From contig CAJTWC010000003.1 of the NCBI GenBank assembly GCA_910580185.1, forward strand, positions 103,093 to 167,092: 64,000 bases of DNA. The letters run 5' to 3'. The translations under genes were made by a program, and so were the position numbers. Positions 53,924-59,047 of this stretch are shown here, piece after piece. Source of the DNA: an uncultured Bacilli bacterium (GTDB lineage Bacteria > Bacillota_I > Bacilli_A > RF39 > UBA660). Within the stretch, counting starts at the first letter, position 1. Each line of letters opens with the position of its first letter. The notes under the pieces were generated by a model. The model ran no database searches. It worked only from the letters and a program-made list of their open reading frames with translations, and was not told the DNA's origin.

Positions 53924-55252
53924 TCAATTAATTTCATTAATTATTTTGTTAGCAACTTCGAAGTCAGAAAAATGATTTTTTGTATCTCCTATTATTTGGT
54001 AGTTTTCATGACCTTTTCCCAAAATCATAAGTATCATATTATCTTTTAACAATTCAAGACCTTTTTTTATTGCATCATACCTATCATATATCACTTCATA
54101 TTTTCCTTTTGCACCTTTTAGAATATCTTTCATTATTTTTCTTTCATCCTCACTTCTAGGGTTATCATTAGTAAATATAACATAATTAGAATATTTACAA
54201 GAAATAGAAGCCATAATTGGTCTTTTTTCTCTATCTCTATTACCACCACAACCTATGATTGTTATAATCCCTTTATTCTTAATCTTATTAACCGTTTTTA
54301 ACACCTTTAAAACCGCATCCGGTGTATGAGCATAATCAATAAATATAACGTTAGAATTGTATTTTATTTTTTGCATTCTACCAGGTGGCTCAGATAATAT
54401 ATAAAATTTATCCTTTATTTTACTTAAATCATATCCTAATTTATTTATTATGTAATATGCATATAAAAAATTGTATACGTTAAAATAACCAACCATTGAT
54501 AAAATTAACCCATGTTTTATTTTATCTTTTATAACAATACTTGTTTTATCCAAATAGTTTTTTACCGAAGTTATTTTTACATCTTTACCAATAATATAAT
54601 TGTTATTTCGTCTATTTTTAAACCTTTTATAGTATTTATCTTTTTTATTTAATATACATATTTTTTTGTTCTTTAACATATTTATAATTTTCTTTTTACT
54701 TTTTATATAATCTTTCATGTTTTTATGATAATCTAAATGATCTTGTGTTATGTTAGTAACACCAACCGCATCAAAAAGTAATCCATATAATCTTTCTTGC
54801 TTTAGTGCATGAGAAGATGCTTCCATAACTATTACATCACAGCCTTTTTCTTTAGCATCTAAAATCAAATTATATAGTATATCAATACTTGGTGTAGTAT
54901 TATCTAATTCTTTAACTAAACCATCTATATAAAAACCAATGGTTCCAATATAAGCAGTTTTAACACCAATATAGTTTAACATTTGATATATAAGATAACA
55001 AGTAGTTGTTTTTCCGTTAGTGCCCGTTATTCCTATTAATTTCATATCATTTATTTTATCATTATAAAAATCCTTTATGTAATCATTAATACTTTCTACT
55101 TTAATGGTTTTTATATCATATGTTTCATCAAGCTCCGTAATTATCTTTACCGCACCATTTTCTATTGCACTTGTTATATATTTTTCATTATCTTTACAGA
55201 CTAAAAAGTAATCACCATCTTTTACATATTTAGAATTTTTCCATAAACGCAT
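53924..55252 (-). CDS. murE: Mur ligase, most likely UDP-N-acetylmuramoyl-L-alanyl-D-glutamate-2,6-diaminopimelate/L-lysine ligase
   Basis: ITGTNGKTTT P-loop, DNTTP, DYAHTPDA, GCGGNRDREKRP, TNDNPRSEDE (MurE-type signatures); somewhat short at 442 aa. Confidence 0.65.
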   Translation of the reverse strand: MRLWKNSKYVKDGDYFLVCKDNEKYITSAIENGAVKIITELDETYDIKTIKVESINDYIKDFYNDKINDMKLIGITGTNGKTTTCYLIYQMLNYIGVKTAYIGTIGFYIDGLVKELDNTTPSIDILYNLILDAKEKGCDVIVMEASSHALKQERLYGLLFDAVGVTNITQDHLDYHKNMKDYIKSKKKIINMLKNKKICILNKKDKYYKRFKNRRNNNYIIGKDVKITSVKNYLDKTSIVIKDKIKHGLILSMVGYFNVYNFLYAYYIINKLGYDLSKIKDKFYILSEPPGRMQKIKYNSNVIFIDYAHTPDAVLKVLKTVNKIKNKGIITIIGCGGNRDREKRPIMASISCKYSNYVIFTNDNPRSEDERKIMKDILKGAKGKYEVIYDRYDAIKKGLELLKDNMILMILGKGHENYQIIGDTKNHFSDFEVANKIINEIN

Positions 55253-55297
55253 TTTATCACCTTCTATATTTGTTTATGAAATTATGTAAAAATGGGT

Positions 55298-55330
55298 ACA
55301 AAAAAAGAATAAACTATTATATTTATTCTT
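55298..55330. terminator. bidirectional terminator between murE start region and the retron RT 3' end
   Basis: AAGAATAAA-N9-TTATTCTT hairpin followed by T runs. Confidence 0.45.
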
Positions 55331-55337
55331 AAAAAAT

Positions 55338-56294
55338 TTATTTTAATTTATTTTGAATACTATTTTTAACTTTTTCCTTATAATTTATAAATTCCATGCT
55401 ATTTTTTTCTATTTGCAAAACAAAATTTATTCTACCAAGTAATTTTCTTAAATATAAATCTTTATCTTTTATTCCGATTCTATTTAAATGACTATCTATA
55501 CCATATTTTTTTATGTAGTATATTTCTTGTCTTATTTTCCTTTTATAACTTTTTCTTATATTTAGTTTTTCATTTACGACAATACCAGTTACTTGCTGCC
55601 TTGTTTTGTTACTTACTACTTTTATTTTTTCTTTATTTAACCTAAATCCTTCATTAAATAAACATTCATTAACATGTCTTATAATTTCTTTTACATTAAA
55701 ATCACCAGAAAACGTCATGTCATCAGAATACCTGGTATAAGAGATATTTCTTTTGCTGCAATAACGTCCAACATGTTCATCAAAATCTCTTAAAACCAAA
55801 TTAGATATGTACCCGCTGGTAGGAGCTCCCTGTGGTAACTTATTATTATAAACACATAAATTTGTAAGTAACATCCCTAGTTTTTTGGGATATAATGATT
55901 CATTAAAGCATGCGTTATAAACTTTATTAAACGTAATATTATCAAAGAAGTTTTTAATATCTAATTTTAATATTGTTTTTTGGTTTATATGCGGTATTGC
56001 ATTATTAGCCAAAGAAGTTTTCTTTTTATAAGCAGTAGCATACTTTGATATTATTCTTTCTTCTAATACGTTAGTTAAAATATTTTTTTGTATTTGTTTT
56101 AATGCTTTAGAAGATTCATTTAAAAATCTTAAACCACCTTTTTTCTTATGAATAATTATTTCTTCATAGTTAGAATCTATATTATTACTGATACCATATA
56201 AAATCTTATTAACTTTTTTGATATCAGATGAATTAACCAAATTAAAAGATAATAATAGTTCGTTATATTTATCAATCGTTAAATACTTAAACAT
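55338..56294 (-). CDS. retron-type reverse transcriptase
   Basis: RT motifs LDIKNFFDNI (1/2), LPQGAPTSG (4), YTRYSDDMTF (5, YxDD); retron hallmarks NAIPH (NAxxH) and RQQVTGIV (VTG); 318 aa; GGAGA RBS; flanked upstream by an msr-msd-like ncRNA. Confidence 0.8.
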   Translation of the reverse strand: MFKYLTIDKYNELLLSFNLVNSSDIKKVNKILYGISNNIDSNYEEIIIHKKKGGLRFLNESSKALKQIQKNILTNVLEERIISKYATAYKKKTSLANNAIPHINQKTILKLDIKNFFDNITFNKVYNACFNESLYPKKLGMLLTNLCVYNNKLPQGAPTSGYISNLVLRDFDEHVGRYCSKRNISYTRYSDDMTFSGDFNVKEIIRHVNECLFNEGFRLNKEKIKVVSNKTRQQVTGIVVNEKLNIRKSYKRKIRQEIYYIKKYGIDSHLNRIGIKDKDLYLRKLLGRINFVLQIEKNSMEFINYKEKVKNSIQNKLK

Positions 56295-56304
56295 ATTATC
56301 ATCT

Positions 56305-56495
56305 CCTTGTTGTAAGCAAAATACTATAATATACTTTAATTAGCGAAGTGTACTTTTAACTACATGAAATGTAGAATAGTACACTGAGCATTACAAGTAT
56401 AATATTTATATTTAGTTTTTCTTGTTTTAGCGACTCGCTAAAGAGACTTTTATATAAATAAAAATCAAACGCTATTTTGTGCTTACATGGTTATT
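56305..56495 (-). ncRNA. retron msr-msd non-coding RNA with a1/a2 inverted repeats
   Basis: Inverted repeats TGTAAGCAAAATACT (56311..56325) and TATTTTGTGCTTACA (56474..56489) bracket a roughly 150-nt region. It contains an msr-type hairpin TTTAGCGA-CT-CGCTAAA and a long msd-type hairpin GTGTACT..CTACAT-GAA-ATGTAG..AGTACAC. A conserved G follows a2 (AUAGCG). Sits immediately 5' of the RT start. Confidence 0.65.
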
Positions 56496-56691
56496 ATATA
56501 TTAAAATTATATTTTTTTAAACTAGTATTTCATTATTTCACATATGTTTTAAGTTTTGAAAATTTAAAAAAACACGCAAATCACTTGAATAAATGACTTC
56601 GTGTTTTTATAATACGTGTATTTTTTACTTTGAAACTAAAATATAACAGTTAATACTCAATCTTGCTTGATAACAAGTTATTAACACTTTA

Positions 56692-57207
56692 TTATGAATG
56701 TATCAACTCTTTATTATATTCTATACATTTTTCTTCTAATAATTTAAAGTTACAACATCTGTTAGATATTACCCTGTTTAGTTTTTTCGAAATATATAAA
56801 TCATATAATTTTTTACTTTTCTTTCTAACTTGTAAATTATGTTCATTAAGCCATGATAACTGATCTAGTAACAAATTATAATATTTAACATCGTCTAGTT
56901 TATTAGAATCATCCATATCAATCAGATAGTAATTATTATCTGATACCGGAATCATATTATTAAAGTTTAATGCACCAAGCTTACCATCTTCTATTTTTAA
57001 AAAGTCCATCATATTACGCATCACTTTATGTTTTTCTTTTGGACTTAATAATGGAGTGAAATATTTAATTTTATCTATTTCAAATAAAACACCAATGAAT
57101 GGTCTATTTTCTTTTTTAGAAAAATTATAAGGAACTCTTTTATCAAACTTTCTTAAATAGTCACAATATTTACTATCAACAATAACTAATTTCATTTTTT
57201 TATTCAT
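56692..57207 (-). CDS. ToxN/AbiQ-family type III toxin-like endoribonuclease
   Basis: 171 aa. KLVIVDSKYCDYLRKFDKRVP...FIGVLFEIDKIKYFTPLLSPKEKH...CCNFKLLEEK parallels ToxN/AbiQ (KYIEYLKEFDDKVP...FIGIVLEI..KYLAPLTSPKKWH...CNFSLLEEK). GGGGTGA RBS; own terminator downstream at about 56565..56610. Confidence 0.7.
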   Translation of the reverse strand: MNKKMKLVIVDSKYCDYLRKFDKRVPYNFSKKENRPFIGVLFEIDKIKYFTPLLSPKEKHKVMRNMMDFLKIEDGKLGALNFNNMIPVSDNNYYLIDMDDSNKLDDVKYYNLLLDQLSWLNEHNLQVRKKSKKLYDLYISKKLNRVISNRCCNFKLLEEKCIEYNKELIHS

Positions 57208-57261
57208 ATTATCACCCCTTTCTTCTTTGAATACAAATGTTCGTTATATATAGTAAAATAA

Positions 57262-57442
57262 AAAGCTAGCGTAAAATTAATTACTGCTAGCTAACTTTTT
57301 TAATTCCCAATTTAATGGCTGGGTTCACCGCTTTTTTCTGCTACCAAATAGTAGCATTAATATTATATGCAAATAAATTGCATAACATAATTTCTTATGT
57401 ACCTAAATATTACTATATATAAATTCATAAGTCAATGAATTT
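57262..57442 (-). promoter_or_regulatory. promoter (TTGACT-N17-TAATAT, 57414..57442) plus structured 5' leader of four short hairpins and a terminator-like hairpin (57272..57298) upstream of the ToxN-like gene
   Basis: Consecutive non-identical palindromes ACATAA/TTATGT, ATGCAA/TTGCAT, GCTAC/GTAGC, CCCA/TGGG, then GCTAGC-N15-GCTAGC plus T run; no tandem direct repeats found. Confidence 0.35.
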
Positions 57443-57499
57443 TAATAATTTTATATAAACAGAAATTTCTAACACAAAAAAGGAAAATAGTTTAAACTA

Positions 57500-59047
57500 C
57501 TATCTTCCTTCTATTTCTTTTAATTTCTTTTCTTTATCAATTCTTGCAAATAATACCTCTGGTTTCATATCACTATAAGTATTATTTTCGTTAAAGCAGT
57601 CTGTTTCATCTTTGATATTCAACTGTTTAAATATTTCATCAGAAGTCTTAGTTAAGAATGGTCTTAAGAAATATGCACACACTCTAATAGATTCTAATAA
57701 GTTATATAAAACAGTTTCTAACCTATCTTGTTTATTTTCTTCTTTAGCTAAGCTCCAAGGCATAGTTTCATCTATGTATTTATTACTACGTCTTAATAGG
57801 TCAAATATTTCATCAAGTGCAAAGCCAATTTCTAACCTTTCCATTCTTTTTTCTACTTTTGAATCTAAGTTATTAATCATAGAAATAAGTTCGTTATCCA
57901 CTTCTTCAGTTACTTTCTTATTAATAACTGTACCATTAAAGTATTTATTAGCCATCGATATTGTTCTATTAACTAAGTTACCTAATGTGTTAGCTAAATC
58001 AGTGTTTGTTCTTTCAATCAATAATTCATAAGTTAAATTACCATCGTTTGCAAAAGGTATTTCATGTAAAACATAATATCTTACCGCGTCTACTCCAAAT
58101 AAATCCACTAAGTCATCTGCGTATATGGTGTTTCCTTTACTCTTACTCATCTTATCAGAGTTAGTTAAAAGCCAAGGATGACCAAATACTTGTTTTGGCA
58201 GTTCAAGATCTAAACTCCATAAAAAACATGGCCAATATATGGTATGAAATCTTATAATATCTTTACCAATTAAATGAAGGTCAGCTGGCCACCATTTATC
58301 AAATTCTTCAGAAGATCCTTCTGGATCATAACCAATGTTTGTTATATAGTTAGTTAAAGCATCAAGCCACACGTATACAACGTGTTTTGGATCAATGTCT
58401 ACCGTTATTCCCCAATCAAACGAAGTTCTAGACACGCATAAATCTTGTAATCCCGGTTTAATAAAGTTATTTAACATTTCATTCTTTCTTGATTCAGGTT
58501 GTATAAATTCTGGATGAGATTCAATGTATTCTACTAATTTATCTTGATATTTAGATAATTTAAAGAAGTAAGCTTCTTCTTTTTTTTCTTCTACGTTCCT
58601 TCCGCAATCAGGACATTTACCATCTACAAGCTGCGATTCAGTCCAAAAAGATTCACAAGGAGTACAATAAAGTCCAGAATATTCACCTTTATAAATATCG
58701 CCTTTTTCATACATCTTATTAAATATTTTTTGAACTATTCGTTCATGCTTTGGATCAGTTGTCCTAACGAATTTATCATAAGATGTATTCATAACATCCC
58801 ATATTCTTTTTATTTCTGTAGCTACTTCATCTACAAATGCTTGTGGTGTAACACCTTTATCTTTTGCCTTAAGTTCTATTTTTTCTCCATGCTCATCAGT
58901 TCCGGTTTGAAAATATACATCATAACCTTTACTTCTTTTGTACCTTGCAATAGCATCTGCAAGTACTATCTCATAAGTATTTCCTATATGAGGTTTACCT
59001 GAAGTATAAGCTATTGCAGTTGAAATATAATATTTTTTATTATTCAT
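57500..59047 (-). CDS. metG: methionyl-tRNA synthetase (short form without C-terminal tRNA-binding domain)
   Basis: HIGH-type motif AYTSGKPHIGNTYE, zinc knuckle CPDCG, KMSKS motif KMSKSKGN; 515 aa. Confidence 0.95.
   Translation of the reverse strand: MNNKKYYISTAIAYTSGKPHIGNTYEIVLADAIARYKRSKGYDVYFQTGTDEHGEKIELKAKDKGVTPQAFVDEVATEIKRIWDVMNTSYDKFVRTTDPKHERIVQKIFNKMYEKGDIYKGEYSGLYCTPCESFWTESQLVDGKCPDCGRNVEEKKEEAYFFKLSKYQDKLVEYIESHPEFIQPESRKNEMLNNFIKPGLQDLCVSRTSFDWGITVDIDPKHVVYVWLDALTNYITNIGYDPEGSSEEFDKWWPADLHLIGKDIIRFHTIYWPCFLWSLDLELPKQVFGHPWLLTNSDKMSKSKGNTIYADDLVDLFGVDAVRYYVLHEIPFANDGNLTYELLIERTNTDLANTLGNLVNRTISMANKYFNGTVINKKVTEEVDNELISMINNLDSKVEKRMERLEIGFALDEIFDLLRRSNKYIDETMPWSLAKEENKQDRLETVLYNLLESIRVCAYFLRPFLTKTSDEIFKQLNIKDETDCFNENNTYSDMKPEVLFARIDKEKKLKEIEGR

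Follow-up and report, generated by a model that had tools for sequence, protein, structure and literature searches.

A chromosomal ToxIN-family locus from a low-GC gut Firmicute lineage with a probably contracted, single-unit ToxI array

Type III toxin-antitoxin loci are defined and searched for by the tandem repeat array that lies upstream of the toxin gene (PMC5086642, PMC3401426). In the ToxIN systems of B. thuringiensis pAW63 (4ATO) and of P. atrosepticum and E. coli (2XD0, 2XDB, 2XDD, 7D8O), a promoter is followed by ToxI, a terminator and toxN, and the units of 34-36 nt, which form pseudoknots, meet in A-rich junctions. There are 2.9 repeats in B. thuringiensis and 5.5 in P. atrosepticum, and the ToxI RNAs with solved structures are H-type pseudoknots (PMC5086642, PMC8860590). 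In the AbiQ/antiQ system of Lactococcus lactis (pSRQ900; 4GLK), antiQ comprises 2.8 repeats of 35-36 nt. Their number is variable and tunes the anti-phage activity, and engineered antiQ variants were viable with 1.8 repeats but not with 0.8 (PMC5086642). Two sources report 2.5 repeats of the P. atrosepticum ToxI as necessary and sufficient in one set-up and describe a single TenpI repeat as not antitoxic (PMC5086642, PMC3401426), while single ToxI repeats have been assayed as antitoxins under over-expression (PMC3475682). The literature brackets the case of a one-unit antitoxin without settling it.

Here, we describe such a case in the window, by which we mean the whole 64-kb stretch of DNA that was analysed. 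We consider it likely that it holds a chromosomal type III locus of the ToxIN family, from a low-GC gut Firmicute MAG lineage, in which the ToxI array has contracted to one 36-nt unit. Its toxin belongs to the same family as those of B. thuringiensis and P. atrosepticum, and the order of the elements, the pseudoknot unit of 34-36 nt and the A-rich junctions are shared as well. In contrast to these systems, there is only one complete ToxI unit, the toxin has Arg in place of Lys33 and Leu in place of Thr52, about 70 nt of conserved leader, including three hairpins, precede the unit, and the locus sits on the chromosome, in the stretch from metG to a Mur ligase gene. With AbiQ/antiQ it has in common the PADLOC name AbiQ, a P-L-L-S strand and a repeat of 35-36 nt, but the sequence similarity is only distant (E 4e-10), and the natural 1.2 copies in the window fall between the viable and the non-viable antiQ variant. 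The closest counterparts are orthologous loci with canonical arrays of 3.2 units in other gut Firmicute MAGs (L094, L004, L002, L102), whose ToxN is 62-94% identical to that of the window. They have the same promoter, leader hairpins, unit sequence and terminator, and the closest ones also the same chromosomal neighbourhood. However, they carry two to three complete units, whereas the window is devoid of internal units and its toxin bears the substitutions A51T and S54L. The PF13958 toxin, the unit of 34-36 nt, its predicted capacity to form a pseudoknot and the predicted layout of promoter and terminator are all features of the ToxIN family; a tandem array of two or more units upstream of the toxin was not found by repeat searches, and the unit profile detects one unit. 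The locus is a variant of ToxIN that lacks the tandem array but is otherwise ordinary and needs no new mechanism.

The toxin gene and its control elements

The product of toxN matches the Pfam model ToxN_toxin (PF13958) across the whole reading frame (residues 5-164 against profile positions 1-159 of 159, E 4.4e-47) and the PADLOC AbiQ model with an E-value of 6.6e-39, which confirms the identification as a ToxN/AbiQ-like toxin made in an earlier note on this DNA. No NCBIfam model matches the protein. Among the structures in the PDB, phmmer relates it to 4ATO (7e-23), 2XD0 (2e-18) and AbiQ, 4GLK (4e-10), and 7D8O is a further relative. All ten assemblies seen contain the full-length reading frame. 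Between the window and its closest relative there are ten synonymous and ten non-synonymous differences (dN/dS 0.20); toxN is under purifying selection. A second toxN was not found within the window. The features of the locus are collected in Table 1.

Table 1. Features of the ToxIN locus and the adjacent reverse transcriptase (RT) gene; positions are those of the window
Feature	Position	Strand	Basis or remark
Ec107-like retron RT	55338-56294	(-)	PADLOC RT_Ec107-like, E 5e-124
Terminator-like hairpin after toxN (AAAAACACG...CGTGTTTTTTT)	56566-56608	(-)	inverted repeat I25, 13 nt, 92% complementary
toxN	56692-57207	(-)	171 aa, ToxN/AbiQ-family endoribonuclease toxin (by family)
Ribosome-binding site (AAGGGGTGA)	57211-57219	(-)	6-7 nt before toxN ATG; read from sequence
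Predicted intrinsic terminator between toxI and toxN (AGCTAGC...GCTAGC stem + TTTTTATTTT)	57255-57292	(-)	RNAfold stem
AAAG, start of next unit ('0.2' copy), recreating the inter-unit junction on the 3' side	57295-57298	(-)	
Single complete ToxI unit (36 nt), AAAGCGGTGAACCCAGCCATTAAATTGGGAATTAAA	57299-57334	(-)	profile of 40 units
Pseudoknot helix S1	57327-57329 with 57317-57319	(-)	
Pseudoknot helix S2	57320-57323 with 57306-57309	(-)	
Fourth palindrome, CCCA/TGGG	within 57306-57323		RNAfold
Leader hairpin 3, TGCTACTATTTGGTAGCA (TGCTACT/GGTAGCA)	57339-57356	(-)	hairpin by RNAfold
Conserved motif TGCATATAATATT overlapping palindrome 2	57359-57371	(-)	
Leader palindrome 2, TATGCAATTTATTTGCATA (TATGCAA/TTGCATA)	57366-57384	(-)	hairpin by RNAfold
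Leader palindrome 1, ACATAAGAAATTATGT (ACATAA/TTATGT)	57385-57400	(-)	hairpin by RNAfold
Predicted sigma-70-type promoter of the toxIN operon, TTGACT-N17-TAATAT	57407-57435	(-)	consensus scan

The layout of promoter, leader, terminator and toxin, as the earlier note had described it, was recovered with every element in its place, and the positions are conserved in relatives. A TTGACA/TTGACT-N17-TA(A/T)TAT box occupies the same position in L004, L094, L102, L002 and L003; promoter-like matches as such are not enriched in this region of 28% GC (25 found, 21.9 expected). The loop of the terminator is too long for a simple terminator scan, and in relatives a GC-rich hairpin with a T-run, although of differing sequence, is found at its position. 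Both promoter and terminator are presumably active.

A ToxI unit within a conserved leader

It had been stated in the earlier note that the leader contains no recognisable ToxI repeat array, and this holds. Neither TRF (minimum score 30) nor a seed-6 direct-repeat search detects a tandem repeat in 57208-57460, and an offset scan of the leader (30-nt sliding identity, offsets 20-89) yields nothing above background. However, one of the suggestions derived from it, namely that the antitoxin is a degenerate or non-canonical RNA, has to be given up. The leader holds one canonical ToxI unit of 36 nt, which is matched at full length, with an E-value of 1.9e-10, by a profile HMM of 40 different units from other loci, while the runner-up in the whole 64-kb window has an E-value of 5.9. 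Searches with this profile and with the unit itself at up to 3 mismatches revealed no second ToxI-like sequence in the window, the retron included. With a single repeat left in the array, the repeats become invisible by eye. A search of 55200-57700 against Rfam (E up to 10) gave a chance match to JPX_2 only, and neither a ToxI nor a retron msr family. In the closest relative (L092, ToxN 94% identical), the last unit of the array has the same sequence as the unit in the window; in L094 and L004, the last unit deviates from it at 1 nt.

The alignment of the 40 units supports two crossing helices, S1 between unit positions 6-8 and 16-18 and S2 between positions 12-15 and 26-29. Pair 7:19 is GC in 33 units and AU in seven, and in none of them unpaired; pair 9:17 occurs as UG (24 units), CG (seven) or UA (seven), and pair 13:30 as UA in 26 units and CG in 13. 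Overall, 86.9% of the cells are paired, and none of 500 shuffles reaches the observed pairing or the observed covariation. The order S1-5', S2-5', S1-3', S2-3' corresponds to an H-type pseudoknot, as predicted from covariation, and the unit in the window forms all seven core pairs.

All 40 aligned units begin with AAAG without exception, and in every array that we inspected AAAG comes after the last unit, too. A junction between two copies of the unit would read GGGAATTAAAAAAGCGG or ...GGGAATTAAAAAAGCGGTG.... The unit in the window is flanked by AAAG on both sides and preceded by an AAAAAAG run (57331-57338), and the array amounts to 1.2 copies. ToxN presumably cuts within the A-rich AAAG junction. 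Since AAAG flanks the unit on both sides, one complete monomer can be released, whatever the exact ToxN cut site is. The phage ΦTE, by comparison, has 1.5 DNA repeats, but their phase is such that no complete pseudo-ToxI is encoded (PMC3475682). Unlike these repeats, the unit in the window is in the right phase. Phage-borne mimics of the unit were not found in IMG/VR (0 matches).

The short palindromes of the leader, which the earlier note had counted as four different ones, are real according to RNAfold, and all of them are present. However, the fourth lies inside the complete ToxI unit, of which it is the inner helix, so that only the first three are leader elements in their own right. At 20 or more other loci, palindrome 1 stands in front of canonical ToxI arrays with almost no change in sequence. 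Since a compensatory change was found in only one of its 11 pairs, its role may lie in the DNA or in the RNA. The TGCATATA motif is conserved at the sequence level, and of 75 distinct leaders, 45 have it upstream of the array. At the position of hairpin 3, directly before the first ToxI unit, most relatives have a hairpin of different sequence. Palindromes 1-3 are conserved leader elements that precede canonical arrays, too, and are no substitute for an array.

The leader of the window is collinear, element by element, with those of L004, L094, L102 and L002. The common order is promoter box, the ACATAAGAAATTATGT and TGCA...TGCATATAAT elements, hairpin, ToxI units, GCTAGC terminator and RBS region.

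Unit number in relatives and the state of the toxin

In order to see what is usual in the clade, one genome per GTDB species was scanned with a ToxN alignment, which yielded 80 loci with 53-66% protein identity, and look-ups of closer ToxN proteins (67-100% identical) added 24 further loci. Units were counted with the unit profile at the 90 loci that have enough upstream DNA. Approximately 90% of these loci possess arrays of 34-36-nt repeats, usually in about 3.2 copies and about 60-230 nt upstream of toxN. Three complete units are present at 67 loci, two at nine and one at 12, whereas four and five units were each seen at one locus only. Arrays are thus nearly universal in the relatives, and the clade represents a standard ToxIN family with canonical ToxI arrays.

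The relatives L004, L094, L102 and L002 have three units where the window has one. Unit number also differs between loci with the same toxin. The identical ToxN P0004 is preceded by three units in L094-L096 (megahit k141 assemblies) and by two in L097, ToxN P0006 by two units in L100 and by one in L101, and ToxN P0002 by at least two. Such close relatives with three, two or one unit imply a contraction of the array. Moreover, on its 5' side the unit in the window is flanked like a first unit, and its 3' end is that of a last unit, as expected if internal units were deleted by slippage or unequal recombination.

One might suspect that the real genome contains about three identical ToxI units, which were collapsed by the assemblers. 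Indeed, tandem repeats of 36 nt exceed the k-mer length of Logan contigs, and six of these contigs (L090, L093, L098, L099, L103, L104) start exactly at a unit, so that arrays evidently disturb assemblies. One of the six, L090, encodes the same ToxN as the window, and there may be heterogeneity in copy number in that sample. Nevertheless, we regard a collapse as very unlikely. The one-unit leader is base-for-base identical, together with an identical ToxN, in nine assemblies from different runs (L081-L089), an NCBI MAG contig among them, and the window is a different and longer contig than the latter but has the same one-unit sequence. Logan contigs tend to break at arrays, but eight of them pass straight through the one-unit leader. 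In addition, the megahit k141 assemblies of relatives (L094-L097) resolve three and two units and hence show real differences in copy number, and a typical read exceeds the 115 nt of a three-unit array.

A genuine contraction might also be a sign of decay, and here the active site is of interest. According to the alignment with ToxN of P. atrosepticum and E. coli, R35 of the window corresponds to Lys33, L54 to Thr52, S55 to Ser53 and K57 to Lys55 (for the roles of these residues, see PMC8860590). Arg in place of Lys33 is known from the E. coli ToxN clusters 4 and 5 (PMC8860590). A51T and S54L are the sole deviations of the window ToxN from sites that are conserved to at least 85% among 119 relatives, and both lie within the active-site strand A-P-L-(S/T)-S-P-K. 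Position 54 is Ser or Thr in 112 of the 119 relatives and Leu in none. In ToxN, the side chain of Thr52, the equivalent of S54, helps to hold the cyclic phosphate (PMC5086642, PMC8860590). These two substitutions could have attenuated or inactivated the toxin, whereupon an array no longer under selection for dosage collapsed, with nothing left to neutralise. The locus would then be a decaying ToxIN remnant. Two other loci fit this picture to some extent: in L042, an independent one-unit locus, toxN is interrupted by an in-frame nonsense codon and an invariant site is changed (F37V), and the one-unit locus L101 carries P87L at a nearly invariant site. L042 illustrates that one-unit arrays can also mark decaying loci.

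We nevertheless consider decay of the window locus unlikely. Next to the full-length frame in all ten assemblies and the low dN/dS, the active-site Ser and Lys are retained, and promoter, unit, terminator and RBS are all intact. Lactococcal AbiQ, a proven RNase, natively has Leu at the Thr52 position, since the same strand reads P-L-L-S in the alignment. The activity of AbiQ is abolished by mutating one Ser (PMC5086642), and this Ser aligns with S55 of the window, which is retained. Neither of the two findings that the earlier note had named as refuting it has emerged: self-alignment gives no array, and the catalytic Ser and Lys are present. The association between low unit number and toxin lesions (the nonsense codon of L042, P87L of L101, A51T/S54L of the window) is suggestive but not significant, because many three-unit loci also have one or two deviations at conserved sites and P87L is present in the two-unit locus L100, too. 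As judged from its sequence, the window ToxN is probably functional and possibly attenuated; with A51T and S54L, it may be a weakened toxin instead of one that a single unit holds in check completely.

The adjacent retron and the proposed regulation

On the same strand, toxN is followed by the RT gene, which begins 397 nt further downstream. Between the two genes, at 56300-56500(-), an ncRNA fold resembling msr-msd is predicted (z = -4.1), with internal hairpins and an a1/a2 stem formed by 56473-56487 and 56311-56323. With a retron-type RT and, upstream of it, a predicted ncRNA with a1/a2 repeats and an msd hairpin, the neighbouring element has the hallmarks of a retron. Its RT scores best to RT_Ec107-like and thereby resembles the Retron-Eco5 (Ec107)-like orphan retrons, which have no known effector (PMC7736814), and there is likewise no conserved adjacent effector gene.

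The vicinity of a well-folded ncRNA and an RT of a clade without known effector is what makes a connection attractive: ToxN might be restrained by the retron, with msDNA or ncRNA as an extra antitoxin, or might itself be the missing effector, and control in trans by the retron had already been suggested in the earlier note. Several close relatives of toxN are indeed found within 0.5-3 kb of the same RT. However, a wider comparison makes such a connection highly improbable. ToxN was not found within 6 kb at any of 80 metagenomic loci of RT homologues (42-70% identity), the closest of which are ordered metG-RT-Mur ligase, and the RT is present at only two of the 80 ToxN loci from GTDB genomes. 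One and the same ToxN, P0004, is accompanied by the RT in L098 and L099 but not in L094-L097, and in relatives toxN and RT are separated by HMGL-like and SLT genes. In L085 and L086, a 1-nt deletion just after YSDD shifts the frame of the RT, but the identical ToxN and the one-unit ToxI persist, and neither the retron nor the rest of the window offers a second ToxI-like sequence. We see equally little reason to believe that the retron became functionally coupled to ToxN in this lineage, with msDNA or ncRNA as an additional restraint that let the ToxI array shrink to one unit. If this were true, an 'effector-less' retron clade would have its long-sought effector in ToxN. The spot between metG and the Mur ligase gene is shared by ToxIN and the retron, whose presence varies and which are independent of each other; the retron of the window is not part of the ToxIN system, and the adjacency reflects local synteny in one lineage.

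For the ToxIN locus with its contracted array, we propose the following mechanism by analogy with the solved ToxIN systems. The promoter (57435-57407) would drive, constitutively, a short RNA that consists of the leader, one ToxI unit and the terminator. Most transcripts would stop at the terminator, so that short ToxI transcripts are in excess, and rare read-through would give rise to the toxN mRNA. ToxN would then cut the precursor in the A-rich AAAG junctions on either side of the unit, and each transcript would free one pseudoknotted 36-nt ToxI RNA instead of three. The processed ToxI would bind ToxN and block the active site, and a loss of ToxI supply, for instance during phage infection, would free the RNase. 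We infer that one unit suffices to hold the window ToxN in check.

As long as type III loci are defined by repeats, screens will miss natural one-unit alleles, whose toxins then pass for "orphan" ToxN genes. Such alleles are recovered when units of relatives are used in a profile search. Moreover, the natural series of three, two and one units in front of near-identical toxins offers a test of how antitoxin dosage relates to the threshold at which abortive infection is triggered, and of whether one unit is the true minimum.

Conserved elements in the ToxIN leader

Many ToxIN loci carry two sequence-conserved elements, (A/G)CATAAGnnATTATG and TGC...TGCATATAAT, between the promoter and the ToxI array. 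They are conserved in 45 of the 75 distinct leaders among L001-L104 (homologous toxN loci from other genomes or assemblies). Since it is the sequence that is conserved, with almost no compensatory changes, a role at the DNA level would account for the pattern no less well than an RNA hairpin. Such a role could be, for example, that of an operator palindrome or that of a second promoter (TTATGT-N17-TATAAT). To our knowledge, no ToxIN leader with elements of this kind has been described.

Features discussed in the text
Feature	Location	Strand	Remark
Conserved leader elements	window 57359-57400	-	
Ec107-like retron	window 55338-56500	-	
Retron RT	window 55338-56294	-	
ncRNA a1/a2 stem	window 56473-56487 paired with 56311-56323	-	5' of RT
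msd hairpin of the ncRNA	window 56344-56386	-	long
metG to Mur-ligase spot	window 55252-57500		also L081-L108
One-unit ToxI locus	L042:3989-4500 and about 150 nt upstream		
Truncated RT	L085:2374-3415		
Truncated RT	L086:2270-3311		
P-loop ATPase-RT locus (example)	L119:725-1633		

Other ToxIN loci

An independent one-unit ToxI locus is present in a GenBank Clostridia MAG (L042). In its toxN, codon 106 is an in-frame stop and the exchange F37V is also present; the locus is therefore a decaying ToxIN. An unusual composite repeat lies upstream of toxN in L005 and L008, where the arrays have a period of 59 nt (3.2-3.3 copies), each period joining approximately the first 20 nt of a ToxI unit to other sequence, and where full units are confined to the array ends. 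Three further loci are tandem ToxIN loci: L009, L073 and L049 possess a second ToxN-like ORF 250-1000 nt 3' of the first, with 59%, 53% and 39% identity to the window ToxN, respectively.

The metG-Mur ligase spot and its retron

The interval between metG and a Mur-ligase gene is a variable spot: ToxIN, an HMGL-like gene, a gene with an SLT domain and the retron RT occur there in combinations that differ among related genomes. The gene orders include metG-RT-Mur, metG-ToxIN-SLT-Mur, ToxIN-HMGL-SLT-RT and ToxIN-RT-Mur. In L085 and L086, two samples of one project, a 1-nt deletion directly 3' of the YSDD motif cuts the RT product to 200 aa, and the flanking ToxIN is identical to that of the window.

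The window itself harbors a complete-looking Ec107-like retron, with two msr hairpins within the ncRNA upstream of the RT and no adjoining effector gene. Close RT homologues with 65-82% identity are very common on long contigs of the same bacterial group. In 11 of the 80 RT-homologue loci, the RT is directly preceded by a P-loop ATPase (GGNGSGKTT ... ILDEPE) that is conserved and about 300 aa long; the window RT has no such neighbor. It is possible that this ATPase serves as effector for part of the window RT's clade.
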